DNA from: Octopus vulgaris | Lineage: Eukaryota | Direction of reading: 5' to 3' | Assembly: GCA_951406725.2 (NCBI GenBank) | Contig: OX597826.1 | Location: 29,698,001-29,762,000, forward strand | Length of the DNA stretch: 64,000 nucleotides | In this document: piece after piece, positions 23,998 through 47,275 of the stretch | How positions within the stretch are numbered: the stretch's first letter is position 1 | Layout: each line of letters opens with the position of its first letter | The notes under the pieces: model-generated | The model's input: only the letters and a program-made list of their open reading frames with translations | The model's database searches: none | What the model was told of the DNA's origin: nothing | Position numbers and translations under genes: made by a program

Positions 23998-24927
23998 AAG
24001 AAAAGTATAACGTTAACTCAACACAGATGTCTTAGAGAATTTGTATTTTAAATATTTGTAGATTCGCGAAATGAATTCAAGGGGTTTCATTTCATTAGAA
24101 AACGCTTTTATGAGAGGAACAGAGGGGAGAAAAAGTGATGGAGAAATCTATATAGAAATATAACCGTTTTTAAGACGGTATAAATATGGAAATAGAAATT
24201 AAAATTAAACAGCATGAAATCGATAGAAGAGAAAAAGAAATTTGATTAAAATGGTTTAAAATATCAAAATAATCAATCAGCCCTGATTCTAAAATAATTA
24301 CTTTAGTTGATGGAAAAGAAATTTGGGGAGAAAGAAGGTATATCACCATACATTTAGTCAAAGTGGTCTAATTTTCTTTAATTAACCCTATAAGCGCAGG
24401 CACGGCTGGGTGAGCGGTTAAGAAGCTCCTTTTCGAACTGACTGGTTTTAGGTTCGGTCCCACTGCGTGACACCTTGGGTTTGTAGGCACGGGCCGTCAG
24501 TAATTACTCAGGGTAGTCAGTTGGCGACATTTATGTAGTAAATCACACAAAAATAAACGAAACACAGGCGCGCGACTGAGTTGAAGGCAGATTTATTTTT
24601 GTCTTTATAACATGTAAAGAAAACGGTGTTGTAGAAATGAACACAGTACGTGTACTACTGCATAAATACTGTGATTGAAAAGTAGGGGCGAATTATCCCA
24701 ACTTAATCTACAAAAAAAAAAAAAAATATTAAACATTTTATGCATAGTAATCAGAGTACCCTTCATAATCTTATTGACTTAGGTGCATATTTTGTCATAA
24801 AAGGAAAATGTTGCTATTGATCTATTTTACAGGCACTGCGTACCTTGCCTGCCTTAGGCGGCACCTCCCTGGTGTATATATATATAATTGATATTTGATT
24901 TAGATGTATTTCTCCATTTTCTTATCT

Positions 24928-25239: not shown

Positions 25240-26440
25240 TATTTTTTACAAAGCCACAGACGCCAAACAATACCTACTTTTTGATTCATGTCACCCAAGA
25301 CACACTAAAACAAACATCCCTTTCAACCTTGCAAGAAGGATATGCACAATAGTGTCAGAACAAAATACCAGGAACGTTAGACTACAAGAACTCAAAAACA
25401 CCCTAATTGACAGACACTACCCAGCTCAACTCATAGAGGATGGGATCAGACGTGCAACAGAAATCGACATAGAAACTTTAAGAAAAGTTCAACACAACAA
25501 CACACCTTCCCCGAAAATACTGCCTTACAGATCCACATACAACCCCAGAAACAAAGAAGCCTTCACCATCACCACCCAGAATTTACCAATACTTCACAAG
25601 GACCCCAAATTAAAGGAAATTCTAAACATACATAAAATCATTAAAAGCTACAAACAACCTAAATCACTTAAAAAGATTCTCACAAAGGCAAAATTGCTTT
25701 CTGAAATTACGGATGCAAAAGTAAAAAAATGTGGTAGACCAAACTGCGTAACATGCCCAAACCTTCTAGAAGGATCAGAATTCCTCTTCAAAGAGGGACA
25801 AAAATTCAAGATCAAATCTAATTTTACTTGTGCTTCTGAAAATATAATTTATGTCATAAGATGCTCGGGCTGCCACCAAAACTACGTGTGGTCCACGGGA
25901 CTATCACTCAGACGGAGATGCACACTGCATCGACAACAGATTGCATTCCCAGAATACAGAATGATACTCTTTAGTGAGCATATTGAGAAATGCGCAAAGC
26001 AACTACTACCACAACTACTACCAATACAAATTAGACTAAACAGGAAACATTCTTCATTGAAAAATATAAGCCCAAACTTAACCACTCTAACATTCTTATA
26101 CAGAGAAACTCATCCCATTAAATAAAAGAGACAAGAAATATAAAGCGATTATCTCCCTTACACTGGAAGAAGTCACTTATTACCTCCCCTTACCTGGAAC
26201 TCTTCTTTACACGTCATAACGAAGTCATAACACGATGTTTTGAGAAATTTGAATAGTTAACACGAAATCGGTAATTTCTTCAAAAACTGTCACTGTATGA
26301 AAAAAAATTATAACATTCTTCTGACATAATGACTCAAATATATATTTTAACCTTTTAAAACAAGCCTTCTGTAGTTTTTTCACTTTTTACTATTTTCTAT
26401 ATATTCAACCACGTGCTTTCACACACCAACTTTCTCACCT
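25240..26440 (+). mobile_element. 5'-truncated Penelope-like element (RT C-terminus plus GIY-YIG endonuclease)
   Basis: ORF 25352-26125 has L..RHYP, KCGRPNCVTC and NIIYVIRCSGCHQNYVWSTG (GIY-YIG). It is flanked by (TA)n. Confidence 0.85.
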
Positions 26441-26453
26441 ATATATATATATA

Positions 26454-26800
26454 TCTTTATATATATAAAATTGAGAATGTGTGTCTGTCTGTGTGTTTCC
26501 CTAAAACTTGAGAACTACACAACCAATTCCATTCAAATTTTACACATGCCTTACTTAGAGTCCATGTAGTTTCATGGACAAAAAAATGTTCAACTTCTTG
26601 CCTAGAGCGAGCCCATAGCAATATCATATCTTCTCCACTATTTCAGTATTACGTGTTAAAAGTGAAACAAAAACGTTTCTCTATTTTGTCAGATACTTTC
26701 ATTTTAACAATAAAAATAATGATAACAATTGAATTATATATAGTAAGTAATAATTAAAATCAAACTAAAGTAACATGACAAAAGTAAAAATAGCAATTGG
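26454..26800 (+). mobile_element. Possible Helitron-like non-autonomous 5' end
   Basis: Starts TCtttatatatataaaa followed by a tgtctgtctgtg microsatellite, an architecture typical of such elements. Confidence 0.45.
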
Positions 26801-26849
26801 TATAAAATTGCATCAATGATTTGAACATGAATAAGTGGTTTCACATGAA

Positions 26850-26980
26850 TGGGAATAAATTAAAAATAAAATTAGCCTGCAGAAATGGAAGAGTCCAGAT
26901 GGATAATAAAAAATTAAATTAAAGAAAAAACTATTGTCTATAAAGTATAAAATGTAGAGAAAAAAGAAGATTCGAACACA
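26850..26980 (+). pseudogene. Left half of an old ORF1 relic interrupted by the array
   Basis: Translates KKTIVYKV*NVEKK..KIRT and aligns to ORF1 KRIIYKTYDTTTKMIQK. Confidence 0.6.
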
Positions 26981-28761
26981 CGGCGGAAATCAATTTGCGT
27001 GTTGTTATCTGTGATTAGACGTTGAAATTTTGTTGTGTAAAGTGATTAATATCGCGCGAGGCGTTTGCCTCCACGTTTGGAAACCTTCCGAAGAAGGTGA
27101 ATTGACCCTCTAGTCATGGCGACTTACGCGGGGGTCACGGGAAAGAATAATAATGATTCGGCAATAATCGTGAAGGATGTTTTCTTTGAGAAAAGTAAAA
27201 TCAAAGAATATGAAAAGCTATTCAAAAGGGAGGGTGATAGCGTGAAGCTAATCCCCCCGCGAAAGCAAAGGAGGACAAGGAAAACAAAACTGTAACGTAT
27301 AGAACCCAGGATAAAAGTACAAAGAAACTGGCAAGAGTGGAGATAGCAGAGATCGAAAAATGTCTGGGAGACATAATGGATAAATCGACCTACGTGAGTA
27401 GAGGAAAAAAATTTGGTACGGTGGAGGTGAGATGTGCAACGGAAGAAATTGCAGCCTCACTGGCTACCACTGTTCTAAGAGCGGAAACATTTATAATGTG
27501 GCCCTCATACAAGGGAAGAAGAGGGGTCCGGGTTAAAATTCCCGAATATACCCCCAGAAATAAAAACAGAATGGCTGGCAACAGCTATTCTAGGAGCAGC
27601 AGAAGAGGAAGTGGAGGTGGAATCCTTTAAGGAGTCCAACGCAGTAAATTGGAGAGGATATGGGGTAGAACTGTGTTTGATGGCCACAAAAGAGGACATT
27701 GAAAGCTTCCCCTATAGAATAGAAATCGAAGACGAGAAAACCCTCAGTGTAATTGTAGAGGGAAGAAAGCCAAACTGCTACTTGTGCGGGACAAGGGGGC
27801 ACATTAAAAAAGAGTGCCCGTTATATGAATTCATGGCGGAGTATGAGAAGGAAACTGAAGAAAAGAAGAATACGGTAAATGAAAAAGAAAACATAGAAAA
27901 GGAGACAAAACAACAAGAGAAAGGAAATAATAAGTCAACGAAGGAAAAAGAAATAAAAGAAAAGAAAGAAATAGAACCAAAACAGAGTCAGGAAAAGAAA
28001 AAGGAAAAAGAAACAACAGGAAAAAAACAAGAGAGAGAACAGAATCAAACGAAAAGAAAAGACGGCACACAAAAAGAAAAAGAAAAGGAACATAAAACAC
28101 GAGAGAAAGAGAGAACAGACAAAGAACCAAAAAGACAAGAGAAGGAAGAAGAAAGAAAAGAAGGCAAAAAGAGAGAAAGAGAGAAACAAAGAGAGGAGAA
28201 CAAGGAAGAAATAAGCCCGAAAAGAAAAACGAGAGAAAACGTAGGACGGAAACAAGATTACTACAAGTTAATAACCTTCCATTTCAGCCCCGAAATGAAG
28301 GAATTGACATGTAGTATGGAGGGACATGTGTGGGTCAACAGGATGACTGATCAGTGGCAGGAGACTGCTCTGATCCCCGAAGAAAGAGTCGCTGAGTTCC
28401 TCAGAGCAGCTGGAGAGAGTGTAATTTTTTACACGGGTGTTCGAGTGAAAGAGCGGCTGCCTGAGGGCTCAGTGATTGACTTTAGAGACTTGAAAAGTAT
28501 TATGGAATACGTGTGAGATTGTGAGAGGAGAGAGAAGAAAGAAGAGAAAAAGAAAAAAAAATTGTGAACTATATGTGACGAAAATGTAACCTCTCGATTC
28601 CGGGGATCGAGTGGGCATTTGCATCTCATTGTAAATATTCTTTCATTTGTCATTTTTATTTTTATTTTTTCCTTTTCTTGTCATTTCGCTTTCTTATTTT
28701 AAGTTCCCCGATTGTATTGTCCCCTCTATGTTCGCCCCTTGTGGGTAGTAATAAAATCAAA
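26981..28761 (+). mobile_element. ORF1-only non-autonomous retroelement S1
   Basis: 1781 bp. Shares termini with the L units and has no EN or RT. Confidence 0.9.
27116..28516 (+). CDS. S1 ORF1 (RRM-like region, CCHC zinc knuckle, K/E-rich tract, C-terminal domain); frameshifted
   Basis: MATYAGVTGK start and CYLCGTRGHIKKEC knuckle. Colinear with L ORF1. Two frameshifts. Confidence 0.8.
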
Positions 28762-30539
28762 CGGCGGAAATCAATTTGCGTGTTGTTATCTGTGATTAGA
28801 CGTTGAAATTTTGTTGTGTAAAGTGATTAATATCGCGCGAGGCGTTTGCCTCCACCTGTGGAAACCTTCCGAAGAAGGTGAATTGACCCTCTAGTCATGG
28901 CGACTTACGCGGGGGTCACGGGAAAGAAAAATAATGATTCGGCAATAATCGTGAAGGATGTTTTCTTTGAGAAGAGTAAACTCAAAGAATATGAAAAGCT
29001 ATTCAAAAGGGAGGGTGATAGCGTGAAGCTAATCCCCCCGCGAAAGCAAAAGAGGACAAAGAAAACAAGACTGTAACGTATAGAACCCAGGACAAAAGTA
29101 CAAAGAAACTGGCAAGAGTGGAGATAGCAGAGATCGAAAAATGTCTGGGAGACATAATGGATAAATCGACCTACGTGAGTAGAGGAAAAAATTTGGTACG
29201 GTGGAGGTGAGATGTGCAACGGAAGAAATTGCAGCCTCACTGGCTACCACTGTTCTAAGAGCGGAAACATTTATAATGTGGCCCTCATACAAGGGAAGAA
29301 GAGGGGTCCGGGTTAAAATCCCGAATATACCCCCAGAAGTAAAAACAGAATGGCTGGCAACAGCTATTCTAGGAGCAGCAGAAGAGGAAGTGGAGGTGGA
29401 ATCCTTTAAGGAGTCCAACGCAGTAAATTGGAGAGGATATGGGGTAGAACTGTGTTTGATGGCCACAAAAGAGGACATTGAAAGGTTCCCCTATAGAATA
29501 GAAATCGAAGACGAGAAAACCCTCAGTGTAATTGTAGAGGGAAGAAAGCCAAACTGCTACTTGTGCAGGACAAGGGGGCACATTAAAAAAGAGTGCCCGT
29601 TATATGAATTCATGGCGGAGTATGAGAAGGAAAATGAAGAAAAGAAGAATACGGTAAATGAAAAAGAAAACATAGAAAAGGAGACAAAACAACAAGAGAA
29701 AGGAAATAATAAGTCAATGAAGGAAAAAGAAATAAAAGAAAAGAAAGAAATAGAACCAAAACAGAGTCAGGAAAAGAAAAAGGAAAAAGAAACAACAGGA
29801 AAAAAACAAGAGAGAGAACAGAATCAAACGAAAAGAAAAGACGGCACACAAAAAGAAAAAGAAAAGGAACATAAAACACGAGAGAAAGAGAGAACAGACA
29901 AAGAACCAAAAAGACAAGAGAAGGAAGAAGAAAGAAAAGAAGGCAAAAAGAGAGAAAGAGAGAAACAAAGAGAGGAGAACAAGGAAGAAATAAGCCCGAA
30001 AAGAAAAACGAGAGAAAACGTAGGACGGAAACAAGATTACTACAAGTTAATAACCTTCCATTTCAGCCCCGAAATGAAGGAATTGACATGTAGTACGGAG
30101 GGACATGTGTGGGTCAACAGGATGACTGATCAGTGGCAGGAGACTGCTCTGATCCCCGAAGAAAGAGTCGCTGAGTTCCTCAGAGCAGCTGGAGAGAGTG
30201 TAATTTTTTACACGGGTGTTCGAGTGAAAGAGCGGCTGCCTGAGGGCTCAGTGATTGACTTTAGAGACTTGAAAATTATGGAATACGTGTGAGATTGTGA
30301 GAGGAGAGAGAAGAAAGAAGAGAAAAAAGAAAAAAAAAATTGTGAACTATATGTGACGAAAATGTAACCTCTCGATTCCGGGGATCGAGTGGGCATTTGC
30401 ATCTCATTGTAAATATTCTTTCATTTGTCATTTTTATTTTTATTTTTTCCTTTTCTTGTCATTTCGCTTTCTTATTTTAAGTTCCCCGATTGTATTGTCC
30501 CCTCTATGTTCGCCCCTTGTGGGTAGTAATAAAATCACA
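28762..30539 (+). mobile_element. ORF1-only element S2 (ORF1 28897-30292, frameshifted)
   Basis: Near-identical to S1. The 363-aa ORF 29201-30292 is open. Confidence 0.9.
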
Positions 30540-30766
30540 CGGCGGAAATCAATTTATTGCGTTATTAGTAAGTTGATATATATTTTTGCTCTCATACTAC
30601 TTATCTTTGTTATTATATACTGTTGGTCTACCTTTTTTTGTCCATTGTTGTCTAACGGACGAAGTCAACCTTCGCGCGAAGACTTCGCGTTGGTGTTCCC
30701 CCCTCAGTGGGGGAAAACTACAATCAATTTAGATTACCAAAGGCTTGTTAAAGCCATTTGTTCAAA

Positions 30767-31803
30767 ATGGAGTCCCCCATCACTTATTCGCCCGTGACGA
30801 GCGAGGAGGAATACCCGGCGTTGTCGCCAAGTAAAAAAGAGGCGTTGTCGCCAAGAAAAAAAGAGGCGCTGTCGCCGAAGAAAAAGAGGCGGCGTCGCCC
30901 AAGAAAATGGTAAAACCAGTACCAGCATCAACTCCAGCAAAAAAATTCGCTGAAGTGGCTGGGAAGAAAATTAAAAAAATTAACGTGGACAACCTGGGAA
31001 AACATGCAGACTGTGTGTCAAAAGAGGGCACAGAAGTAACCGTGGCTTCAAACGCCAAAATACAGGAGGATATTTCGAATAGGAGAATAATCTATAAGAC
31101 ATTCAGTATAACAAACAGAGCAATCCAAAAAATAGAGGAGAAAAAGATTGAAAACTGCTTAAAGCCAATAATGGACAAAATTACGTATATCAATCGAGGG
31201 AAGAAATACGGCACAGTGGAGGTGAGATTCACGTCAGAGGAGGTAGCGAAGAAGCTATCCATGGAACCCATAAAAGCAGAGGATATTGTTCTCCTACCCC
31301 TGTATAAAGGCAAGAGAACTTCCAAAATCACTATGAACAACATCCCGCCAGAAGCGGATGCCGAAGTCCCTAGTGGCAGCAGTTATGGTAGGCCTGGAGG
31401 AAAAAATAAACATCCTCCAGGCCACCGTAGAAGAAGAAGAATTCTGGAAAGGGCAAAAGATAATAATAGCCATACAAGCAGAAGTACAAACCCTGGAAGA
31501 GATCCCAGAGACTCTTAGGATAAGCGAAGATGAAAGAGTCACAGTCTTCGTAGAGGGCAGAAAGCCGAGGTGCTTCGGCTGCGGTAAGAAGGGGCATGTA
31601 AGGGCGGAATGCCAGCCCCAACCCAAACCGCAGGAAGCACCTAAGCCAAAAGGAAAAGAAGACAATGTGTCATCAGAAGCAGCGTCAGACGGCCCAGATG
31701 GGAAGACTGAAGGTGTGGAGGTGATGATAACAGCAGAACCAGCGGCGGAGGAAAAAAAGAGCGAAGAAAAGATAAATGAGGAGGGGTGGGCAAAAATTAT
31801 CGG

Positions 31804-31839
<36 letters not shown>

Positions 31840-32165
31840 CGGAAACCACCCCTCCCAGAGTAATTTTAAAAAAGAAAAAAGAGTCAATAAACTCATATAT
31901 GGCCGTAAAAGCATCAAATAGCAGACTCGGAAACGTGTTGGCTGCCATGGCCAATGTGAAGAGAGTAGAGAAAAAAAATGACTTTGCAATTTACAAAATA
32001 GACCGGAAGGATTACGGGCGGATAAAGTCAGATTTCTTCCATGACGTAGGCCCACTTAGGTTGGATGTAACATCTCCACATATATTCGAGGGCCTACGTC
32101 AGACTCCCCCACGAGGCCCAGAAAAAGAGAAGGAAGAAGAAGAAAAAACCGAACCACTGATATAA
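30767..32165 (+). CDS. L-a ORF1 (SPxK repeats, RRM-like region, zinc knuckle CFGCGKKGHVRAEC); frameshifted
   Basis: Pieced from ATG 30767 and ORFs 30907, 31358 and 31776. Confirmed by comparison with L-b. Confidence 0.8.
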
Positions 32166-32174
32166 AGGTAAGTA

Positions 32175-35100
32175 ATGGATTACATTTATGTTGGTTGTTT
32201 AAATGTGCGCGGCCTGGGAGCAGGCTGGAAGCAAGGTCGCTTCCTGCATGATATCAGGTCGCGTAATTTAGATGTTATTGTTGCTACAGAAACCCGGCTA
32301 GAGGGGCCAAGAGGTCTACTCCCGCTGTTTGACGGCTACGAGAGTTTTTTCTCTCCTGGCAGTCCTACAGGCGGGAGTGGGGTGTTGGTCCTATTAAAAA
32401 GAAACCGGGTTTCTGAGAAAAAGTTAATTTTTGCAGATCCAGAAGGTAGGCTGGTCGTCATGGATTTGACGTTCAGTAATGGTAAAGTTATCAGACTGGT
32501 TGCAATTTACGCACCCAACCATACAGGGCAAAGTGATTATTTTCGTGAACTAGAAAACTTTCTTGGTACTTCGCATTCATTAGTGGTGCTAGGAGACTTT
32601 AACACAATTTGCAAAGCGGATGTAGATTATGTTGGCTCGTGTCCAGATAGAAAAGGCAACAGTGGCTTCATGGAACTGCTAAGCCGCTTTGAGCTAGCAG
32701 ATCCTTATAGGCTGGAATTTCCGAACGCTCCATTGTGGACATGGTCAAACAGCGACGGATCTTCCAGGTCGTATCTAGATAGAATACTAATTAGAAAAGT
32801 AGACAGTAAAATAGCTAAGTGTCCACAGTTTTACCCGATCAGCTACAGTGATCATAAAATGGTCACTTGTAAGCTTGACATAGATAAGGTTAAAAATAGA
32901 GGATCCGGTTACTGGAAACTTAATACGTCCCTTTTGGCGATTAAGGAGTACAAAGACCGGATTAGGAATATAATTCAGAGGGCACTATCTGGTACCATCA
33001 TTAATAACAAATGGTGGTACGCCCTCAAACGAGCCATCAAGTTTGAGTCTATTAGATATAGCATAGGAGTAGTGGCTAGAGAGGCTAGAAGGGAAACTAC
33101 TCTAGTTAAGGAATTAGAGGAAGCCATGAAAACTGGCTCTGCGGCTCAGGTGGCGGCCAAGAGACTGGTGTTAAACCAGCACCTCGAGGCCAAACACATG
33201 GGCTGCATTGTCAGGGCTAGAATCCGTCATATGGGATGTGAAGGAATCAACGCCGTGAGATGGGCCCGAGTGGTGGAAGCTCAGCATGGTAACGATGCCA
33301 CGATTCGATCTTTGACGAACCAACAAGGTGAGTTGATAAACGAACCCGAGGAGATGTGTGAGGCCTTTCAGGAGCACTTCGCTCAGCTTTTCGGTGAGTG
33401 CGGCGGACTGGATAGGAGGAGGGCCTTTACGGACCTACTCGACGGTCTGCCGCGCTTATCGGGGCGAGATGCGGAGGGCTGTGAAGGGCCAATCACGCCT
33501 GAGGAGGTGGTTGAGGCAATGGCGGACTGCGGCGCGGGCAAGGCGCCGGGTTTGGATGGTCTACCCTATGAGTTATATAAGAGTATGCCAGACTTGTTCG
33601 GGCACCTACTGGCGGAGGTCTACGCGAACTGGCAGCAGAACGGGCTTATACCCAGATCTGTGCGCCGGGGAGTAGTGACTCTCGTCAGAAAGGACCCGAG
33701 CAAGGGGGAGTGCATTGATAATTTCAGGCCCATCACTCTGCTAAACACAGAGTTGAAGATTTTGGCCAAAGTGTTATCGAAAAGATTGGCGCGTGTCGCG
33801 GATGGTCTGATCGGAGGGGCACAGACATGTGCCGTTCCGGGCAGATCCATTCAGGATAATCTCCATCTAATGCGGTACACTATAGAGGGGTTTAATAGTG
33901 ATTCTGGCAAGGGTGGGGCACTGGTCCATTTAGACCAATCTAAAGCTTTTGATAGGGTCGACCATCGTTACCTGGTATCTGCCCTGGCACAGTTCGGGCT
34001 GAGCCTTGGATTCCTCAGGTGGATTATCGAAATTTATGATAACATCGACTCGGTAGTTCGGGTGAACGGCTTCTTGTCGAAGCCGTTCAAAATCAAACGC
34101 TCGGTTCGTCAAGGGTGTCCGCTCTCCCCGCTTTTGTACGTGATGGCTCTTGAGCCATTACTGCGAAAACTGAGCGGCATCCCGAGACAGCCAGGTAATG
34201 GAAAATCAGTGTCAGCGTACGCGGATGACATCACCATCATCGTAACCGAAATGGACCACCTATGTAAAGTAGGCAAGGCCATAGAGGTGTACGAGACGGT
34301 GACAGGAGCAAAAGTTAATCGCGAAAAGTCAGTCGGCTTGCAACTCGGCACCTGGAGAGGCAAGTCGATGCCTCCTGACAGCGTCGTGGGACGTTGGACG
34401 GAGGGTCCGATTAAACTGCTAGGGGTCTGGTTCGGTCCAGACCTCCAAATAGAGAAGAATTGGGGCGAGGTAACGAGCAAGGTGGCTGCAGTAGCCAAGA
34501 CCTGGTCTTGGCGGTGGCTATCCCTGAAAGGGAGGGCGGAGGTGGCCAATGTGTTTATCGCATCGGTTATCACCTACCGCCTTTCCGTCGTTCCTTGCCC
34601 TGATTCGTGGTTGATCAAGTTGGAAAGACAGCTCTTCTACTTCTTGTGGAAGGGCGGGAAACCACTTGTGAAACGCTCTACTTGCTGTCAACAACCGTTA
34701 AAGGGTGGGCTAGGGATGCCTTGGCTGATGATGCGCAGACATGCGCTGAGGTTAAGACATCTGTGGCTCTACCTGGATGGTGAACGGGTGTGGTCTTCGC
34801 TAGCAAAACTGATGTTTCCCAAGTTCACTAGTTTCGGTGGATGGGAAACCTGGCTGAATCGTAGATCGAAACTTGGTACTTGGTACACGGAGTGTCGCAA
34901 GGCTCTCCTGCTATTCCGTCGCTCGGGCAACGCCTGCGGTGGGGGTTCCACCACTTTCTTCTATAGAGGGTTGGTAGAGGCGGAATGTGAAGATACCTTG
35001 GGGGAAACCCTAGGTCTCGACGATAATCAGCTGGCCAGTCTGTTCCGACGTACGTTCGAGCCAAGGACACTGGACAACTTCCAGAAGTCTCTGGCATGGC

Positions 35101-35570
35101 AATGCTACAGAGGAGCTCTACCTGTTCGGGATAAACTCGCAAGGCACGGTGGCCAAGACAGTCCGATATGTCCAAGATGCGGGCGGGATAGGGAAACCGT
35201 CCCGCACGCGATTGTTCATTGTCCGGACGTGTCTGAGGTGTGGGTTTATGCCGAACACCTGTTGTCAGGTACACGAAGAGTACAGCTGTCGACTGAGTCG
35301 ATTACAAAAATTGACCCACCGGATTTCCTCGTGAATGAAGGTAAGTTTCGTTTTCTCGTTGTAGTAGCAATCGCGAAAGAGGTGATATGGAAGACGAGAA
35401 TGAAAGGTTTACAGTCAGGCAAGTTCATCTCCGGCCCTGGTTTGATGAATTATTTCATCTTTCACCTGAAAAGGAAGATAGGGCTGGAGAGAATATGCCT
35501 GACTAGGAGAGCGTATGAAGAACGATGGAAGGATGTAGCACGGAAGTTGCGAATGAAAGTTACAACATAA
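32175..35570 (+). CDS. L-a ORF2: APE endonuclease, reverse transcriptase and C-terminal CCHC, 1131 aa, intact
   Basis: LNVRG, GDFN and SDH (APE); GYWKLN; FRPITLLN, KAFDRV, RQGCPLSP and YADD (RT); CPRC..ETVPHAIVHC. Confidence 0.95.
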   Translation: MDYIYVGCLNVRGLGAGWKQGRFLHDIRSRNLDVIVATETRLEGPRGLLPLFDGYESFFSPGSPTGGSGVLVLLKRNRVSEKKLIFADPEGRLVVMDLTFSNGKVIRLVAIYAPNHTGQSDYFRELENFLGTSHSLVVLGDFNTICKADVDYVGSCPDRKGNSGFMELLSRFELADPYRLEFPNAPLWTWSNSDGSSRSYLDRILIRKVDSKIAKCPQFYPISYSDHKMVTCKLDIDKVKNRGSGYWKLNTSLLAIKEYKDRIRNIIQRALSGTIINNKWWYALKRAIKFESIRYSIGVVAREARRETTLVKELEEAMKTGSAAQVAAKRLVLNQHLEAKHMGCIVRARIRHMGCEGINAVRWARVVEAQHGNDATIRSLTNQQGELINEPEEMCEAFQEHFAQLFGECGGLDRRRAFTDLLDGLPRLSGRDAEGCEGPITPEEVVEAMADCGAGKAPGLDGLPYELYKSMPDLFGHLLAEVYANWQQNGLIPRSVRRGVVTLVRKDPSKGECIDNFRPITLLNTELKILAKVLSKRLARVADGLIGGAQTCAVPGRSIQDNLHLMRYTIEGFNSDSGKGGALVHLDQSKAFDRVDHRYLVSALAQFGLSLGFLRWIIEIYDNIDSVVRVNGFLSKPFKIKRSVRQGCPLSPLLYVMALEPLLRKLSGIPRQPGNGKSVSAYADDITIIVTEMDHLCKVGKAIEVYETVTGAKVNREKSVGLQLGTWRGKSMPPDSVVGRWTEGPIKLLGVWFGPDLQIEKNWGEVTSKVAAVAKTWSWRWLSLKGRAEVANVFIASVITYRLSVVPCPDSWLIKLERQLFYFLWKGGKPLVKRSTCCQQPLKGGLGMPWLMMRRHALRLRHLWLYLDGERVWSSLAKLMFPKFTSFGGWETWLNRRSKLGTWYTECRKALLLFRRSGNACGGGSTTFFYRGLVEAECEDTLGETLGLDDNQLASLFRRTFEPRTLDNFQKSLAWQCYRGALPVRDKLARHGGQDSPICPRCGRDRETVPHAIVHCPDVSEVWVYAEHLLSGTRRVQLSTESITKIDPPDFLVNEGKFRFLVVVAIAKEVIWKTRMKGLQSGKFISGPGLMNYFIFHLKRKIGLERICLTRRAYEERWKDVARKLRMKVTT

Positions 35571-35819
35571 ATGTAATACCAAGTGCAACCAAAAGTATCA
35601 GTGGGGAGGCGGGGCTCGTGGGGTCCGAGCTAAACCCGCACCCACTCCACCCGTAATGTCTTCCGGTCTGTCCTATCACTCGATTTTTGTCCATTTATTG
35701 TTATTCATGAAAATTTTTAAACCCGATTTATTGTAAAAACCCATTCGTTTGTCTGACCCCATCATCAGAATGTATTGTCCCATCTGTGTTCGCCCCTTGT
35801 GGGTAATAATAAAACAACA

Positions 35820-37595
35820 CGGCGGAAATCAATTTGCGTGTTGTTATCTGTGATTAGAAGTTGAAATTTTGTTGTGTAAAGTGATTAATATCGCGCGAGG
35901 CGTTTGCCTCCACCTGTGGAAACCTTCCGAAGAAGGTGAATTGACCCTCTAGTCATGGCGACTTACGCGGGGGTCACGGGAAAGAAAAATAATGATTCGT
36001 CGATAATCGTGAAGGATGTTTTCTTTGAGAAAAGTAAACTCAAAGAATATGAAAAGCTATTCAAAAGGGAGGGTGATAGCGTGAAGCTAATCCCCCCGCG
36101 AAAGCAAAAGAGGACAAAGAAAACAAGACTGTAACGTATAGAACCCAGGACAAAAGTACAAAGAAACTGGCAAGAGTGGAGATAGCAGAGATCGAAAAAT
36201 GTCTGGGAGACATAATGGATAAATCGACCTACGTGAGTAGAGGCAAAAATTTGGTACGGTGGAGGTGAGATGTGCAACGGAAGAAATTGCAGCCTCACTG
36301 GCTACCACTGTTCTAAGAGCGGAAACATTTATAATGTGGCCCTCATACAAGGGAAGAAGAGGGGTCCGGGTTAAAATCCCGAATATACCCCCAGAAGTAA
36401 AAACAGAATGGCTGGCAACAGCTATTCTAGGAGCAGCAGAAGAGGAAGTGGAGGTGGAATCCTTTAAGGAGTCCAACGCAGTAAATTGGAGAGGATATGG
36501 GGTAGAACTGTGTTTGATGGCCACAAAAGAGGACATTGAAAGGTTCCCCTATAGAATAGAAATCGAAGACGAGAAAACCCTCAGTGTAATTGTAGAGGGA
36601 AGAAAGCCAAACTGCTACTTGTGCGGGACAAGGGGGCACATTAAAAAAGAGTGCCCGTTATACGAATTCGTAGCGGAGTGCGAGCAGGAACTCGAAAAGA
36701 AGAATACGGTAAATGAAAAAGAAAACATAGAAAAGGAAACAAAACAACAAGAGAAAGGAAATAATAAGTCAATGAAGGAAAAAGAAATAAAAGAAAAGAA
36801 AGAAATAGAACCAAAACAGAGTCAGGAAAAGAAAAAGGAAAAAGAAACAACAGGAAAAAAACAAGAGAGAGATCAGAATCAAACGAAAAGAAAAGACGGC
36901 ACACAAAAGAAAAAGAAAAGGAACATAAAACACGAGAGAAAGAGAGAACAGACAAAGAACCAAAAGACAAGAGAAGGAAGGAGAAAGAAAAGAAGGCAAA
37001 AAGAGAGAAAGAGAGAAACAAAGAGAGGAGAACAAGGAAGAAATAAGCCCGAAAAGAAAAACGAGAGAAAACGTAGGACGGAAACAAGATTACTACAAGT
37101 TAATAACCTTCCATTTCAGCCCCGAAATGAAGGAATTGACATGTAGTACGGAGGGACATGTGTGGGTCAACAGGATGACTGATCAGTGGCAGGAGACTGC
37201 TCTGATCCCCGAAGAAAGAGTCGCTGAGTTCCTCAGAGCAGCTGGAGAGAGTGTAATTTTTTACACGGGTGTTCGAATGAAAGAGCGGCTGCCTGAGGGC
37301 TCAGTGATTGACTTTAGAGACTTGAAAGGTATTATGGAATACGTGTGAGATTGTGAGAGGAGAGAGAAGAAAGAAGAAAAAAAAGAAAAAAAAAATTGTG
37401 AACTATATGTGACGAAAATGTAACCTCTCGATTCCGGGGATCGAGTGGGCATTTGCATCTCATTGTAAATATTCTTTCATTTGTCATTTTTACTTTTTAT
37501 TTTTTCCCTTCTTGTCATTTCGCTTTCTTATTTTAAGTTCCCCGATTGTATTGTCCCCTCTATGTTCGCCCCTTGTGGGTAGTAATAAAATCACA
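35820..37595 (+). mobile_element. ORF1-only element S3 (ORF1 35955-37348, frameshifted)
   Basis: Homologous to S1 and S2. Confidence 0.9.
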
Positions 37596-39376
37596 CGGCG
37601 GAAATCTATTTGCGTGTTGTTATCTGTGATTAGACGTTGAAATTTTGTTGTGTAAAGTGATTAATATCGCGCGAGGCGTTTGCCTCCACGTGTGGCAACC
37701 TTCCGAAGAAGGTGAATTGACCCTCTAGTCATGGCGACTTACGCGGGGGTCACGGGAAAGAAAAATAATGATTCGTCGATAATCGTGAAGGATGTTTTCT
37801 TTGAGAAAAGTAAACTCAAAGAATATGAAAAACTATTCAAAAGGGAGGGTGATAGCGTGAAGCTAATCCCCCCGCGAAAGCAAAAGAGGACAAAGAAAAC
37901 AAGACTGTAACATATAGAACCCAAGACAAAAATACAAAGAAACTGGCAAGAGTGGAGATAGCCGAAATCGAAAAATGTCTGGGAGACATAATGGGGAAAT
38001 CGACCTACGTGAGTAGAGGCAAGAAATTTGGTACGGTGGAGGTGAGATGTGCAACGGAAGAAATTGCAGCCTCACTGGCTACCACTGTACTAAGAGCGGA
38101 AACATTTATAATGTGGCCCTCATACAAGGGAAGAAGAGGGGTCCGGGTTAAAATCCCGAATATACCCCCAGAAGTAAAAACAGAATGGCTGGCAACAGCT
38201 ATTCTAGGAGCAGCAGAAGAGGAAGTGGAGGTGGAATCCTTTAAGGAGTCCAACGCAGATAAACTGGAGAGGATATGGGGTAGAACTGTGTTTGATGGCC
38301 ACAAAAGAGGACATTGAAAGGTTCCCCTACAGAATAGAAATTGAAGATGAGAAAACCCTCAGTGTAATTGTAGAGGGAAGAAAGCCAAACTGCTACTTGT
38401 GCGGGACAAGGGGGCACATTAAAAAAGAGTGCCCGTTATACGAATTCGTAGCGGAGTGCGAGCAGGAACTCGAAAAGAAGAATACGGTAAATGAAAAAGA
38501 AAACATAGAAAAGGAAACAAAACAACAAGAGAAAGGAAATAATAAGTCAATGAAGGAAAAAGAAATAAAAGAAAAGAAAGAAATAGAACCAAAACAGAGT
38601 CAGGAAAAGAAAAAGGAAAAAGAAACAACAGGAAAAAAACAAGAGAGAGATCAGAACCAAACGAAAAGAAAAGACGGCACACAAAAAGAAAAAGAAAAGG
38701 AACATAAAACACGAGAGAAAGAGAGAACAGACAAAGAACCAAAAAGACAAGAGAAGGAAGGAGAAAGAAAAGAAGGCAAAAAGAGAGAAAGAGAGAAACA
38801 AAGAGAGGAGAACAAGGAAGAAATAAGCCCGAAAAGAAAAACGAGGAAAACGTAGGACGGAAACAAGATCACGGCTTCTACAAGTTAGTAACCTTCCATT
38901 TCTGCCCTGAAATGAAAGAATTGACAAGTAGTACGGAGGGACATATATGGGTCAACAGGATGACCGATCAGTGGCAGGAGACTGCTCTAATCCCCGAAGA
39001 AAGAGTCGCTGAGTTCCTCAGAGCTGCCGGAGAGAGTGTAACGTTTTACACGAGTGTTCGAGTGAGAGAGCGGCTGCCTGAGGGCTCAGTGATTGACTTT
39101 AGAGAATTGAAAACTATTATGGAATACGTATAGAATTGTGAAAAGAGAGAGAAGAAAGAAGAGAAAAAAGAAAATATTGTGAACTATATGTGACGAAAAT
39201 GTAACCTCTCGATTCCGGGGATCGAGTGGGCATTTACATCTCATTGTAAATATTCTTTCATATGTCATTTTTTACTTTTATTTTTTCCTTTTCTTGTCAT
39301 TTGCTTTCTTATTTTAAGTTCCCCGATTGTATTGTCTCCTCTATGTTCGCCCCTTGTGGGTAATAATAAAATCACA
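37596..39376 (+). mobile_element. ORF1-only element S4 (ORF1 37731-39133, frameshifted)
   Basis: Homologous, with a variant 3' portion. Confidence 0.9.
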
Positions 39377-41139
39377 CGTCGGAAATCTATTTGCGTGTTG
39401 TTATCTGTGACTAGACAGTGAAATTTTGTTGTGTAAATTGATTATTATCGCGCGAGGCGTTTGCCTCCACGTGTGGAAACCTTCCGAAGAAGGTGAATTG
39501 ACCCTCTAGTCATGGCGACTTACGCGGGGGTCACGGGAAAGAAAAATAATGATTCGTCGATAATCGTGAAGGATGTTTTCTTTGAGAAGAGTAAACTCAA
39601 AGAATATGAAAAGCTATTCAAAAGGGTGGGTGATAGCGTGAAGCAAAAGAGGACAAAGAAAACAAGACTGTAACATATAGAACACAAGACAAAAATACAA
39701 AGAAACTGGCAAGAGTGGAGATAGCAGAAATCGAAAAATGTCTGGGAGACATAATGGGGAAATCGACCTACGTGAGTAGAGGCAAAAATTTGGTACGGTG
39801 GAGGTGAGATGTGCAACGGAAGAAATTGCAGCCTCACTGGCTACCACTGTACTAAGAGCGGAAACATTTATAATGTGGCCCTCATACAAGGGAAGAAGAG
39901 GGGTCCGGGTTAAAATCCCGAATATACCCCCAGAAGTAAAAACAGAATGGCTGGCAACAGCTATTCTAGGAGCAGCAGAAGAGGAAGTGGAGGTGGAATC
40001 CTTTAAGGAGTCCAACGCGATAAACTGGAGAGGATATGGGGTAGAACTGTGTTTGATGGCCACAAAAGAGGACATTGAAAGGTTCCCCTACAGAATAGAA
40101 ATTGAAGATGAGAAAACCCTCAGTGTAATTGTAGAGGGAAGAAAGCCAAACTGCTACTTGTGCGGGACAAGGGGGCACATTAAAAAAGAGTGCCCGTTAT
40201 ACGAATTCGTAGCGGAGTGCGAGCAGGAACTCGAAGAAAAGAAGAATACGGTAAATGAAAAAGAAAACATAGAAAAGGAAACAAAACAACAAGAGAAAGG
40301 AAATAATAAGTCAATGAAGGAAAAAGAAATAAAAGAAAAGAAAGAAATAGAACCAAAACAGAGTCAGGAAAAAAAAAGGAAAAAGAAACAACAGGAAAAA
40401 AACAAGAGAGAGATCAGAATCAAACGAAAAGAAAAGACGGCACACAAAAAGAAAAAGAAAAGGAACATAAAACACGAGAGAAAGAGAGAACAGACAAAGA
40501 ACCAAAAAGACAAGAGAAGGAAGGAGAAAGAAAAGAAGGCAAAAAGAGAGAAAGAGAGAAACAAAGAGAGGAGAACAAGGAAGAAATAAGCCCGAAAAGA
40601 AAAATGAAGGAAAACGTAGGACGGAAACAAGATTACTGCTTCTACAAGTTAGTAACCTTCCATTTCTGCCCTGAAATGAAGGATTTGACAAGTAATACGG
40701 AGGGACATGTGTGGGTCAACAGGATGACCGATCAGTGGCAGGAGACTGCTCTAATCCCCGAAGAAAGAGTCGCTGAGTTCCTCAGAGCTGCCGGTGAGAG
40801 TGTAACATTTTACACGAGTGTTCGAGTGAGAGAGCGGCTGCCTGAGGGCTCAGTGATAGACTTTAGAGAATTGAAAACTATCATGGAATATGTATAGAAT
40901 TGTGAGAAGAGAGAGAAGAAAGAAGAGAAAAAGAAAATATTGTGAAATATATGTGACGAAAATGTAACCTCTCGATTCCGGGGATCGAGTGGGCATTTAC
41001 ATCTCATTGTAAATATTCTTTCATATGTCATTTTTTACTTTTATTTTTTCCTTTTCTTGTCATTCGCTTTCTTATTTTAAGTTCCCCGATTGTATTGTCC
41101 CCTCTATGTTCGCCCCTTGTGGGTAATAATAAAATCACA
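39377..41139 (+). mobile_element. ORF1-only element S5 (ORF1 39512-40897, frameshifted, 18-nt deletion)
   Basis: Homologous. Lacks taatccccccgcgaaagc. Confidence 0.9.
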
Positions 41140-41363
41140 CGTCGGAAATCAATTTTTTGCGTTTATTAGTAAGTTGATATATTTTTGCTCTCGTACTATT
41201 ATCTCTGTTATTATATACTGTTGGTCTACCTGTTTTGTCTATTGTTGTCTAACTGACGAAGTCAGCCTTCGCGCGAGACTTCGCGTTGGTGTTCCCCCCT
41301 CCGTGGGGGAAAACTACAATTAATTTGGATTTACCAAAGGCTTGTTAAAGCCATTTGTTCAAG

Positions 41364-42741
41364 ATGGAGTCCCCCATCTCTTATTCGCCCGTGACGAGCG
41401 AGGATGAATACCCGGCGTTGTCGCCAAGAAAAAAGAGGCGTTGTCGCCAAGAAAAAAAGAGGCGTTGTCGCCGAAGAAAAAAGAGGCGGCGTCGCCCAAG
41501 AAAATGGAAAAACCAGTACCAGCATCAACTCCAGCGAAAAAATTCGCTGAAGTGGCTGGGAAAAAGATTAAAAAAATAAATATAGAAAATTTGGAAAAAT
41601 TTGCAGACTGTGTAAAAAAAGAGGGCACAGAAGTGACTGTGGCCACAAACATACAAAAACATGACGATATAGAAAAAAAAAGAATAATATATAAAACTTA
41701 CGACACAACGACAAAAATGATCCAAAAAATCGAAGAAAAAAAAATAGAGTTTTGTCTAAAACCTTTTATGGATAAAATAACGTATATAAACAGAGGAAAA
41801 AGATACGGCACAGTGGAGGTGCGTTTTACTACGGAGGAGATAGCGAAAAAACTATCGATGGAGCCGATCAAAACAGAAAACATTGTCTTACTACCATTGT
41901 ATAAAGGAAAAAGGACGTCGAAAATTTCAATGAACAACATACCGCCAGAGGCAGATGCAGAATGTCTGGTGGCAGCAGTGATGGTAGGCCTGGAGGAAAA
42001 AATAAACATCCTCCAGGCCACAGTGGAGGAAGAGGAGTTTTGGAAAGGGCAGAAAATAGTGATAGCCATTCAGGCGGAGGTGCAAACACTGGAAGAAATT
42101 CCAGAAACGGTAAAGATTAGTGAAGACGAGAAAATAACAGTTTTCGTGGAGGGCAGGAAGCCGAGGTGCTTCGGCTGCGGCAAGAAGGGTCATGTAAGGG
42201 CGGAATGCCAACCCCAACCCAAACCGCAGGAAGCACCTAAGCCAAGAGAAAAAGAAGATAATGTGTCACCAGAAGCAGCGTCGGACGGCCCAGAAGGGAA
42301 GACTGAAGGTGTGGAGGTGACGGTGACAGCAGAACCAGCGGCGGAGGAAAAAAAGAGCGAGGAAAAGATAAATGAGGAGGGGTGGGCAAAAATTACCGGA
42401 AAAAAAAAAGAAAAACGGAAACCACCCCTCCCAGAGTAATTTTAAAAAAGAAAAGAGAGTCAATGAACTCGTATATGGCCGTAAAGGCAGCAAATAGCAG
42501 ACTCGGAAACGTGTTGGCAGCCATGGCCAAAGTGGAGAAAGTAGTGAAAAAAAACGACTTTGTAATTTACAGAATAGGCCGGAAGGATTACGGGCGGATA
42601 AAGTCAGAATTCTTCCATGACGTAGGCCCACTTAGATTGGATGTGACATCTCCACATATATTCGAGGGCCTACGTCAGACTCCCCCACGAGGCCCAGAAA
42701 AAGAGTTAGAAGAACAAGAGAAAACCGAACCACTGATATAA
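41364..42741 (+). CDS. L-b ORF1; frameshifted in A-runs
   Basis: MESPISYSP start, 332-aa ORF 41441-42439 and C-terminal ORF 42382-42741. Confidence 0.82.
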
Positions 42742-42750
42742 AGGTAAGTA

Positions 42751-45700
42751 ATGGATTACATTTATGTTGGTTGTTTGAATGTGCGCGGCCTGGGAGCAGG
42801 CTGGAAGCAAGGTCGCTTCCTGCATGATATCAGGTCGCGTAATTTAGATGTTATTGTTGCTACAGAAACCCGGTTAGAGGGGCCAAGAGGTCTACTCCCG
42901 CTGTTTGACGGCTACGAGAGTTTTTTCTCTCCTGGCAGTCCTACAGGCGGGAGTGGGGTGTTGGTCCTATTAAAAAGAAACCGGGTTTCTGAGAAAAAGT
43001 TAATTTTTGCAGATCCAGAAGGTAGGCTGGTCGTCATGGATTTGACGTTCAGTAATGGTAAAGTTATCAGACTGGTTGCAATTTACGCACCCAACCATAC
43101 AGGGCAAAGTGATTATTTTCGTGAACTAGAAAACTTTCTTGGTACTTCGCATTCATTAGTGGTGCTAGGAGACTTTAATACAATTTGCAAAGCGGATGTA
43201 GATTGTGTTGGCTCGCGTCCAGATAGAAAAGGCAACAGTGGCTTCATGGAACTGCTAAGCCGCTTTGAGCTAGCAGATCCTTATAGGCTGGAATTTCCGA
43301 ACGCTCCATTGTGGACATGGTCAAACAGCGACGGATCTTCCAGGTCATATTTAGATAAAATACTAATTAGAAAAGTAGACAGTAAAATAGCTAAGTGTCC
43401 ACAGTTTTACCCGATCAGCTACAGTGATCATAAAATGGTCACTTGTAAGCTTGACATAGATAAGGTTAAAAATAGAGGATCCGGTTACTGGAAACTTAAT
43501 ACGTCCCTTTTGGCGATTAAGGAGTACAAAGACCGGATTAGGAATATAATTCAGAGGGCACTATCTGGTACCATCATTAATAACAAATGGTGGTACGCCC
43601 TCAAACGAGCCATCAAGTTTGAGTCTATTAGATATAGCATAGGAGTAGTGGCTAGAGAGGCTAGAAGGGAAACTACTCTAGTTAAGGAATTAGAGGAAGC
43701 CATGAAAACTGGCTCTGCGGCTCAGGTGGCGTCCAAGAGACTGGTGTTAAACCAGCACCTCGAGGCCAAACACATGGGCTGCATTGTCAGGGCTAGAATC
43801 CGTCATATGGGATGTGAAGGAATCAACGCCGTGAGATGGGCCCGAGTGGTGGAAGCTCAGCATGGTAACGATGCCACGATTCGATCTTTGACGAACCAAC
43901 AAGGTGAGTTGATAAACGAACCCGAGGAGATGTGTGAGGCCTTTCAGGAGCACTTCGCTCAGCTTTTCGGTGAGTGCGGCGGACTGGATAGGAGGAGGGC
44001 CTTTACGGACCTACTCGACGGGCTGCCGCGCTTATCGGGGCGAGATGCGGAGGGCTGTGAAGGGCCAATCACGCCTGAGGAGGTGGTTGAGGCAATGGCG
44101 GACTGCGGCGCGGGCAAGGCGCCGGGTTTGGATGGTCTACCCTATGAGTTATATAAGAGTATGCCAGACTTGTTCGGGCACCTACTGGCGGAGGTCTATG
44201 CGAACTGGCAGCAGAACGGGCTTATACCCAGATCTGTGCGCCGGGGAGTAGTGACTCTCGTCAGAAAGGACCCGAGCAAGGGGAGTGCATTGATAATTTC
44301 AGGCCCATCACTCTGCTAAACACAGAGTTGAAGATTTTGGCCAAAGTGTTATCGAAAAGATTGGCGCGTGTCGCGGATGGTCTGATCGGAGAGGCACAGA
44401 CATGTGCCGTTCCGGGCAGATCCATTCAGGATAATCTCCATCTAATGCGGTACACTATAGAGGGGTTTAATAGTGATTCTGGCAAGGGTGGGGCACTGGT
44501 CCATTTAGACCAATCTAAAGCTTTTGATAGGGTCGACCATCGTTACCTGGTATCTGCCCTGGCACAGTTCGGGCTGAGCCTTGGCTTCCTCAGGTGGATT
44601 ATCCAAATTTATGATAACATCGACTCGGTAGTTCGGGTGAACGGCTTCTTGTCGAAGCCGTTCAAAATCAAACGCTCGGTTCGTCAAGGGTGTCCGCTCT
44701 CCCCGCTTTTGTACGTGATGGCTCTTGAGCCATTACTGCGAAAACTGAGCGGCATCCCGAGACAGCCAGGTAATGGAAAATCAGTGTCAGCGTACGCGGA
44801 TGACATCACCATCATCGTAACCGAAATGGACCACCTATGTAAAGTAGGCAAGGCCATAGAGGTTTACGAGACGGTGACAGGAGCAAAAGTTAATCGCGAA
44901 AAGTCAGTCGGCTTGCAACTCGGCACCTGGAGAGGCAAGTCGATGCCTCCTGACAGCGTCGTGGGACGTTGGACGGAGGGTCCGATTAAACTGCTAGGGG
45001 TCTGGTTCGGTCCAGACCTCCAAATAGAGAAGAATTGGGGCGAGGTAACGAGCAAGGTGGCTGCAGTAGCCAAGACCTGGTCTTGGCGGTGGCTATCCCT
45101 GAAAGGGAGGGCGGAGGTGGCCAATGTGTTTATCGCATCGGTTATCACCTACCGCCTTTCCGTCGTTCCTTGCCCTGATTCGTGGTTGATCAAGTTGGAA
45201 AGACAGCTCTTCTACTTCTTGTGGAAGGGCGGGAAACCACTTGTGAAACGCTCTACTTGCTGTCAACAACCGTTAAAGGGTGGGCTAGGGATGCCTTGGC
45301 TGATGATGCGCAGACATGCGCTGAGGTTAAGACATCTGTGGCTCTACCTGGATGGTGAACGGGTGTGGTCTTCGCTAGCAAAACTGATGTTTCCCAAGTT
45401 CACTAGTTTCGGTGGATGGGAAACCTGGCTGAATCGTAGATCGAAACTTGGTACTTGGTACACGGAGTGTCGCAAGGCTCTCCTGCTATTCCGTCGCTCG
45501 GGCAACGCCTGCGGTGGGGGTTCCACCACATTCTTCTATAGAGGGTTGGTAGAGGCGGAATGTGAAGATACCTTGGGGGAAACCCTAGGTCTCGACGATA
45601 ATCAGCTGGCCAGTCTGTTCCGACGTACGTTCAAGCCGAGGACACTGGACAACTTCCAGAAGTCTCTGGCATGGCAATGCTACAGAGGAGCTCTACCTGT

Positions 45701-46143
45701 TCGGGATAAACTCGCAAGGCACGGTGGCCAAGACAGTCCGATATGTCCAAGATGGGGGGGATAGGGAAACCGTCCCGCACGCTATTGTTCATTGTCCGGA
45801 CGTGTCTGAGGTGTGGGTTTATGCCGAACAGCTGTTGTCAGGTACACGAAGAGTACAGCTGTCGACTGAGTCAATTACAAAAATTGACCCACCGGATTTC
45901 CTCGTGAATGAAGGTAAGTTTCGTTTTCTCGTTGTAGTAGCAATTGCGAAAGAGGTGATATGGAAGACGAGAATGAAAGGTTTACAGTCAGGCAAGTTCA
46001 TCTCCGGCCCTGGTTTGATGAATTATTTCATCTTTCACCTGAAAAGGAAGATAGGGCTGGAGAGAATATGCCTGACTAGGAGAGTGTATGAAGAACGATG
46101 GAAGGATGTAGCACGAAAGTTGCGAGTGAAAGATACAACATAA
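42751..46143 (+). CDS. L-b ORF2 (EN-RT-CCHC), split by two frameshifts in G-runs
   Basis: ORFs 42751-44319, 44328-45764 and 45724-46143 are almost identical to L-a ORF2. Confidence 0.9.
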
Positions 46144-46390
46144 ATGTAATACCAAGCGCAACCAAAAGTATCAGTGGGGAGGCGGGGCTCGTGGGGTCCG
46201 AGCTAAACCCGCACCCACTCCACCCGTAATGTCTTCCGGTCTGTCCCATCATTCGATTTCTGTCCATTTATTGTAATTCATGAAAATTTTTAAATTCGAT
46301 TTATTGTAAAAACCCATTCGTGTGTCTGACCCCATCATCAGATTGTATTGTCCCATCTATGTAGCCCCTAGTGGGTAATAATAAAACAAC

Positions 46391-46690
46391 ATGGAGGAAA
46401 GCACCTTCGAAAAGTGTCTTGGTGCGACTATCAGAGGCGGTAAATTCGCCACAATAGAAGCAAGGTTCGAGTCAACGGAGCGTGCAAGGGAGTACTCGAT
46501 TCGAACTTGCAAAGTGGAAATATTTTATTTTTACCTTTATATCTGGGACGTAGGATGTCCCGGAAAAAAATTTTAAATGCCCCCCCCCAGAAGTAGAGGT
46601 AGGCTGGATTGTAGCCACACTTCTATACAAGAGGGAGGACAAGATACAATTGATCGAAATTACAAGAGATGGGCTAACGATTCCAGTCTG
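46391..46690 (+). pseudogene. Right half of the old ORF1 relic
   Basis: MEESTFEKCLG..RGGKFATIEARF..LPLYLGRR..NAPPEVEVGWIVATLL aligns to S and L ORF1. Confidence 0.75.
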
Positions 46691-47275
46691 TTATATATTT
46701 TGAGTATTGTTATCACTAGTGATATCAAGATATAACTTTGTATTTTGTATTTTATGTGTAGATGTATATATATAGATGTACACACATATATATACACATA
46801 TATACATGCACTAGCACTATGACCCGGCAACGACGGGTCTTTAATGCTAGTATATATATATATATATATATGAGAATGTGCATATGTACATGGGGTGGGT
46901 ATAGTTGGGCGGTTAAGAAACTCGGTTTGCAAACGTGTGGTTTTAGGATCAGGCCTCTGTGTAGCACCTTGGGCAAGAGTCTCCTACTGTAGCCCCGGGT
47001 TGACCAGTGTCTTGAGAGTGAATTGGTGGAGGAAAACTGTATGGAAACCTGTTGTGTGTGTGTGTATGTATGTGTGTATTTATGTGTGTGTGTGAGCGTA
47101 TTTGTGTGTGTGTATTTATGTGTGTGTGTGTGCGCATGCGCGTGAGTGTATATATGTGCGAGTGTGCGCGTGGTGTATATGTGTGCGTGTGTCTTTTTTT
47201 CACCGATTGACAAGTGGTGTTGGTTTGTTTACGTCTCCGTAACTTATAAGTTCAACAATGGAAAGCGATAGAATA

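Follow-up and report, generated by a model that had tools for sequence, protein, structure and literature searches.

We analysed a stretch of 64,000 nucleotides from Octopus vulgaris (the window throughout; assembly GCA_951406725.2, contig OX597826.1, positions 29,698,001 to 29,762,000 of the forward strand) in which seven retrotransposon units stand head to tail at positions 26978-46388, in the order S S L S S S L. Five of them (S) carry only the first open reading frame (ORF1) of a long interspersed nuclear element (LINE), and two (L) are complete LINEs. Both flanks of this array are the halves of one multicopy repeat of about 1 kb (1.0-1.2 kb), which spans 26454-46850 in the window and proved to be a Helitron. 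We conclude, with a probability of roughly three in four, that the five S and two L units were inserted one after another at a single base of this Helitron, each copy likely at the left edge of the growing chain. Mixed head-to-tail chains of this kind recall HeT-A and TAHRE. The features of the locus are the following.

26454..26977, plus strand: 5' half of the non-autonomous Helitron, opening with TC after an A; its final ~40 bases are the likely targeting determinant
26918..26977, plus strand: captured ORF1-like fragment, part 1, with one in-frame stop in the window copy
26978..26992, plus strand: left junction tag, a target-site duplication overwritten by an element-borne variant and the likely landing junction of the next copy
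26978..28758, plus strand: S1, ORF1-only; ORF1 at 27116-28516 with a zinc knuckle, frameshifted here; the most derived S of the array
28759..30536, plus strand: S2
30537..35816, plus strand: L1, full-length LINE; ORF1 at 30767-32165, frameshifted in A runs
32175-35570, plus strand: ORF2 of unit L1, open, 1131 amino acids, with APE endonuclease, reverse transcriptase and zf-RVT
35817..37592, plus strand: S3
37593..39373, plus strand: S4
39374..41136, plus strand: S5, the most basal S of the array
41137..46388, plus strand: L2, of an older L subfamily, with ORF2 spread over several frames; the likely founding insertion
46389..46404, plus strand: right copy of the target-site duplication, which is the original Helitron target word
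46389..46675, plus strand: captured ORF1-like fragment, part 2, frameshifted
46389..46850, plus strand: 3' half of the Helitron, with a hairpin at 46821-46839 and a CTAG end before T

The S element is 1.78 kb long and consists of a single ORF1 with a CCHC knuckle, with no reverse transcriptase recognized by Pfam. The L element is 5.3 kb long and encodes ORF1 and an ORF2 in which Pfam recognized an APE endonuclease, a reverse transcriptase and a zf-RVT domain. The two have only a 5' tag and their last ~60 bases in common, and blastn gave no match between them beyond these ends. The ORF2 of L matched human L1 ORF2p, its closest relative among solved structures, at an E value of 7e-65, and R2 at 5e-26. 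Judged by these similarities and by its combination of ORF1, APE, reverse transcriptase and C-terminal zinc region, L belongs to the L1 group of LINEs. A CCHC knuckle in ORF1, a target preference, a duplication of about 16 bp and the lack of a poly(A) tail are traits of the Tx1 clade. All four are present in L, which we therefore call Tx1-like within the L1/Tx1 group, a label set by traits rather than by a reverse transcriptase tree of named Tx1 elements. The name TX1 was attached to 1 of 32 homologues of L, at an identity of only 26%, and a protein atlas lookup returned no clade name for L. With its ORF1, its lack of reverse transcriptase, the 3' tail it shares with L, and the same site and duplication, S is an ORF1-only non-autonomous LINE, and the common tail and site suggest that it is mobilised in trans by the ORF2 of L. 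Four sequencing runs that we guessed to be RNA contained contigs of S in all cases and the empty-site form in three of the four; they gave nothing firm on expression, strand or start.

The host was identified by searching the 2.8 Gb genome with the two flanking halves, which gave 601 and 1214 first-look candidates, 40 of each being scored. The 60 loci drawn from both searches were mostly empty sites in which the halves are joined. An earlier note on this DNA, made from the letters of the window, had described the flanks as an older ORF1 relic, a reading that halves derived from different elements would have refuted; the joined empty sites show that they come from one. An empty allele of the window locus itself was not observed. 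TC was found at the 5' end of 26 of 45 empty copies, preceded by A in 20 of these 26, and CTAG at the 3' end of 41 of the 45, with T next in all 41. The window copy has TC at 26454 and CTAG at 46847-46850, with a GC-rich hairpin (46821-46839) ending 7 bases before CTAG. The host repeat is thus a non-autonomous Helitron with hundreds of copies. These copies diverge by a median of 5.2% (45 copies), slightly above the distance between the oldest and youngest S of the window, which differ at 82 of 1747 columns.

The flanks also contain an ORF1-like piece. In tblastn the S ORF1 matched them at an E value of 1.7e-6 (31% over residues 58-159) and the L ORF1 at 1.2e-6, and matches below 1e-3 were obtained in 10 (S ORF1) and 15 (L ORF1) of the 45 empty copies, the best value in a shuffled control being 4.4. 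The piece is 30-40% identical to the S and L ORF1 and frameshifted, without nucleotide (blastn) similarity to either element, which points to its capture by the Helitron from a distant relative family of S and L. Its best local match was an older L ORF1 (58-61% over 18-24 residues). The ORF1 of family B, an ORF1-only family described below, was considered as the source and rejected, there being no B match among the best 25 non-Helitron matches, nor was the source family found among these. The relic of the earlier note, whose quoted flank letters lie at 26967-26978 and from 46391, therefore stands insofar as the flanks encode an ORF1-like fragment (E ~1e-6), and falls insofar as this is the middle of a multicopy Helitron and not a unique relic. 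Its rejoined reading dropped one base and used the wrong frame on the left, where the ORF1-like frame is the one starting at 26918; real empty sites are out of frame at the join, except for L069, which is 2 bases shorter and in frame. Self-targeting in the strict sense likewise does not hold, as the target is Helitron DNA without a nucleotide match to S or L.

A direct pattern search found 115 exact element-to-Helitron junctions at one base, a count that includes the second family, B, and that bears out the proposal of sequence-specific targeting. The genome holds 410 exact S/L 3' ends, of which we inspected the first 100 listed (C1-C4), together with 34 stretches chosen for long arrays, left junctions and off-target ends. 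Among these first 100, 29 (30 by eye) adjoin the 3' half of the Helitron at that one base, 38 were called as followed by an S or L unit (3 of them mis-calls), and 33 were other; the last were older subfamilies off target, four copies that occupy a second site, in a Helitron variant of shorter length, and three of a lineage with another target. Off-target and truncated copies are flanked by duplications of 16-19 bp, which indicates that the junction motif is foremost a target-site duplication. The off-target sites of the same lineage share only four bases in 8 of 8 cases, ACAT in seven and ACCT in one.

If one old insertion had been spread by transposition of the Helitron, the shared site would be inherited and not targeted. 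The host is indeed mobile, and four older loci share one second site. The arrays, however, differ in make-up, subfamily and truncation points, the inserts are 0-1% diverged against the Helitron median of 5.2%, and the right junctions bear each Helitron copy's own variant, so that we regard such hitchhiking as extremely improbable.

Several further insertions were seen in the same and in other hosts. At L135, L147, L148 and L158, 5'-truncated copies lie on the site with 40-310 bases of upstream Helitron deleted. Older L and S subfamilies (L172, L173, L177, L219, L145 and L216) use another word, in a Helitron variant lacking about 290 bp; this second site lies at nearly equal distance from shared upstream sequence, and the tags of these copies match its word. 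Related families were also seen further upstream in the Helitron that holds the main site, at distances of about 10, 23 and 40 bases from it (L144 near 317; L150 near 2751 and 4440). At L234-L263 (for example L237, L245, L254 and L260) a second multicopy repeat forms a hub, with related families at different bases within about 50 bp.

We compared the 12-mer at each junction with the majority target over 29 arrays, with one truncated-L junction scored as right and one left junction adjoining a B end. The 29 left and 70 internal junctions carried 2.2 mismatches on average, as against 0.48 at the 29 right junctions and 0.38 at the 45 empty sites. The 15-mer at 46389-46403 does match the junction 15-mer (26978, 30537 and 35817) at 12 of 15 positions, as had been reported, and the right-hand word had been read as a degenerate version of the motif at the element junctions. 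In fact it is the majority target word, present in 31 of the 45 empty sites, and it is the junction words that have drifted. Successive junctions were identical in 59 of 99 cases, which together with the mismatch pattern indicates that a new junction copies the old one or is partly overwritten. Among 11 single-unit Helitrons with both ends intact, the left and right 12-mers were different in 8. The tag variant of the window recurs on two other chromosomes (L269 and L270), and at the off-target locus L204 both L copies still have, behind the true duplication, the tag together with 8 bases resembling the Helitron. From the left/right differences, the recurring variants and L204, it is likely that the elements carry the tag in their RNA as well as duplicating the target, in agreement with the earlier suggestion that each element brings along or restores the word at its 5' end. 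Sorted by hand, 27 of 30 insertions on the site had a full-length 3'-most unit, against 1 of 8 off it (Fisher p 7e-5), as would be expected if pairing of tag and target completes the 5' end. Such drift is seen in a chain of 45 kb with 22 S and one L (L220-L224; G000:C7:100.087-100.132 Mb), where the tag changes stepwise from right to left and runs of identical units occur.

The order of insertion was read from a ladder-like tree of 70 full-length S units, for which a single older copy served as outgroup. Counting pairs more than 15 substitutions apart as informative, the upstream S was more derived in 132 of 134 pairs and in 7 of 8 arrays (sign test by arrays, p 0.035), and in the window array in 10 of 10 pairs. 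A tree of 53 L ends agrees with this polarity for most pairs. The best copies of the word lie at right junctions, beside the oldest units, and left junctions with 3-4 mismatches were reused; given the polarity, the right junction shows no clear sign of reuse despite having the best motif. Upstream DNA is kept at the left junction only, so that each round of insertion leaves the chain with a single landing site instead of adding one, and the units, read from right to left, give the order in which the elements succeeded one another.

The earlier note had proposed that the endonuclease reads a word of 14-15 nt and that every insertion adds a landing site; on this model any junction would serve and growth could occur anywhere. 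All junctions do resemble the word, the elements carry it, and L141 possibly contains one internal insertion. Growth at the 5' edge in 132 pairs against 2, the oldest units lying beside the best word copies while poorly matching junctions were reused, the four bases shared by off-target sites and an S on the site at L278 without the word all stand against this proposal, which is largely refuted and which we consider very unlikely.

Alternatively, most array growth could be due to unequal crossing-over or tandem duplication, starting from a few insertions. Positions 26977-35831 and 37592-46403 of the window align at 94.7% as S-S-L blocks, and L220 and L230 contain stretches of units that are 0-3 differences apart. 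Between the two window blocks, however, matching units differ at 77 and 70 of 1747 columns where the neighbours S1 and S2 differ at only 16, the nearest relatives of all five window S sit in other arrays, and their order follows the genome-wide ladder. The S tree and these distances rule out a block duplication as the origin of this array, and we doubt strongly that duplication is the main source of arrays in general. It probably holds in part for L220 and L230, and local multiplication probably contributed to the runs of near-identical units in some arrays.

Two or more additional ORF1-only families (B) also end on the insertion base of the Helitron (L232, L233, L214, L181 and L144); the 5' junction of family B removes about 12 upstream bases, and B lies upstream of S/L. 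At L278/L284 an S occupies the exact base though the downstream word is the leader of family B. Only one such exact junction of S or L before B exists genome-wide, and at least 14 Helitron-B junctions lack the last upstream bases, none with an element in front. Insertion of family B may close the site to S and L. It is likely the upstream Helitron DNA, rather than the tag, that sets the landing position. The Tx1L endonuclease is described in part of PMC1950540 as cutting less well when upstream bases are replaced.

The upstream determinant could also be a promoter: the Helitron 5' half would drive transcription, elements would be steered to the start site and the RNA tag would come from there, which would alter how the site is found and leave the outline intact. 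TATA-like words occur in the Helitron 5' half at 26939 and 26946 (39 and 32 bases before the insertion site), the tag lies at the presumed start of the RNA, and a core of four bases cannot alone give such specificity. On the other side, most Helitron copies have no TATA-like word at -32, and a sub-lineage that switched targets also changed its endonuclease. On-site L copies have endonucleases 96-100% identical. Three L copies about 3% from L2 at the 3' end use another target repeat and carry that repeat's word as their tag; this word has 30 exact matches in the genome, most within that repeat. The target-switched copies differ in the loop after the catalytic tyrosine-asparagine, as does an older copy, L171, and a loop change together with a target change favours reading of the target by the protein. 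This argument is tempered by the target-switched L168, which is full length at an unrelated site with a tag match of 12 of 14. We regard the promoter as possible, and as the less probable form of the determinant.

Several observations weigh against successive insertion at an upstream-defined site. Pairs from one array cannot count as independent, and a single outgroup copy underlies the age order. The two pairs of opposite polarity came from the arrays L175 (one) and L220 (1 of 76), and at L141 a younger-type L lies downstream of basal S units, which would fit overlapping lineages or an insertion inside the array. The case for an upstream requirement consists of the polarity and one natural experiment, the B junctions are possibly just younger, and by eye the sequences upstream of off-target sites have no evident likeness to that of the Helitron. 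For the carried tag, the difference at L187, one of the eight differing single insertions, is a one-base shift, and no RNA 5' end was seen for S or L. The excess of full-length copies on site was sorted by hand, and the automatic count (24 of 26 against 3 of 15) mixes loci chosen for intact left ends with tail-only matches.

Taking the host identity, the one insertion base, the 16-19 bp duplications, the age order and the tag variants at unrelated loci as established, we propose that the APE endonuclease of L would nick a short core (AC-A/C-T) when it lies behind the Helitron upstream sequence, and that target-primed reverse transcription would duplicate about 16 bp, S borrowing the enzyme of L through the common 3' tail. 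The RNA likely starts at the duplication or a few bases before it, so that the end of the complementary DNA (cDNA) would carry a copy of the tag. This cDNA tag would anneal to the target overhang and prime the second strand, making the new left junction a chimera of target and tag. Such pairing would favour full-length insertion on site and would allow the tag to drift. More tentatively, targeting may be split: upstream host DNA would set the nick, an RNA-borne tag of 12-16 nt from the previous site would decide full-length completion, and rewriting of the tag at each insertion would allow lineages to change hosts on acquiring a new one. The chains would then be leader-polarised, CRISPR-style tapes of LINE succession, and the Helitron with its captured ORF1 piece a self-spreading landing pad contested by several families.

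Within the window, a part of ORF1 (31000-31500 against 41600-42100) shows about 120 differences in 500 bases between units L1 and L2, whose ORF2 sequences differ by less than 2%, pointing to either an ORF1 swap or fast ORF1 change. Outside the array, a Mariner-type element with inverted ends and a transposase fragment (Pfam Transposase_1) lies on the minus strand at 47277-48567, an open frame at 25250-26125 without a Pfam match presumably represents a Penelope-type element in its 3' part, including a GIY-YIG-like region, and a 3' tail resembling that of family B lies at 23980-24010.

The comparisons that follow draw on portions of the cited papers. Drosophila R1 (Stage and Eickbush, 2009; PMC2718515) is a site-specific APE LINE with a duplication of ~14 bp between R1 copies. 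Its tandem arrays arise when a new copy enters the duplication at the resident's 5' end, and some R1 RNAs carry target bases that anneal and give precise 5' junctions. R1 targets 28S ribosomal DNA, with 2-3 units on average and an unchanged 28S spacer, and in that study no R1 was found upstream of a copy without duplication, whereas the octopus chains stand in a Helitron, comprise as many as 23 units of two element types, and have a drifting tag and one tag-less insertion. Duplication-separated units and growth at the 5' side are thus common to both, and the R1 clade and 28S target are replaced by an L1-like ORF2 and a Helitron. Among Tx1-clade LINEs, Tx1L in Tx1D, and Tx1-Mar and SINEU-3 in Mariner-N4_AMi (Kojima, 2015; PMC4494074), also combine LINEs and non-autonomous partners on a non-autonomous DNA transposon, and SINEU-3 forms tandem copies around a 16 bp duplication; here a Helitron serves as host, with the target inside an ORF1 piece that it captured, the partner codes for ORF1, and the chains are long and age-ordered. 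HeT-A, HAL1 and Ag-Sponge (PMC5786205) are, like S with its ORF1, its L-shared tail and its lack of ORF2, ORF1-only non-autonomous LINEs. They derive from Jockey, L1 and CR1, whereas S is interstitial and site-specific, with an ORF1 far from that of L. For R2 (PMC3774820), RNA-borne target bases are likewise proposed to prime the second strand and give uniform 5' junctions; R2 differs in its restriction-like endonuclease, its ribozyme (not sought here) and carried bases that lie upstream of the nick, where those of S and L are mostly downstream. Zepp of green algae (PMC3446292) also forms LINE clusters by repeated insertion at one place, with copies nested in each other, whereas here the units are whole and side by side and host DNA is needed. 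The site of Zepp type would lie within the element's own sequence; here it lies in the Helitron, and internal and right junctions are without clear reuse.

An octopus repeat annotation (PMC13282606) lists active L1-Tx1 families, and its main text does not use 'target' or 'nested'. In the literature searched, no LINE with a Helitron as its target came up; cases may exist in Repbase, in subscription papers or in the supplements to PMC4494074 and PMC13282606, which lay outside the search. The basic mechanism of the array is already known from R1 and is found here in a Tx1-like family that targets another transposon. What is new is the Helitron host, the target in a captured ORF1 piece, the fast-drifting tag and full-length insertion tied to a tag-matching site. 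The arrays provide many dated natural experiments on the joining of LINE 5' ends, the least understood step of integration, in which the contributions of upstream DNA, of the nick core and of target bases carried on the RNA can be told apart, with a bearing on tools for RNA-templated gene insertion. They also present a mobile element as a spreading safe haven for other mobile elements.

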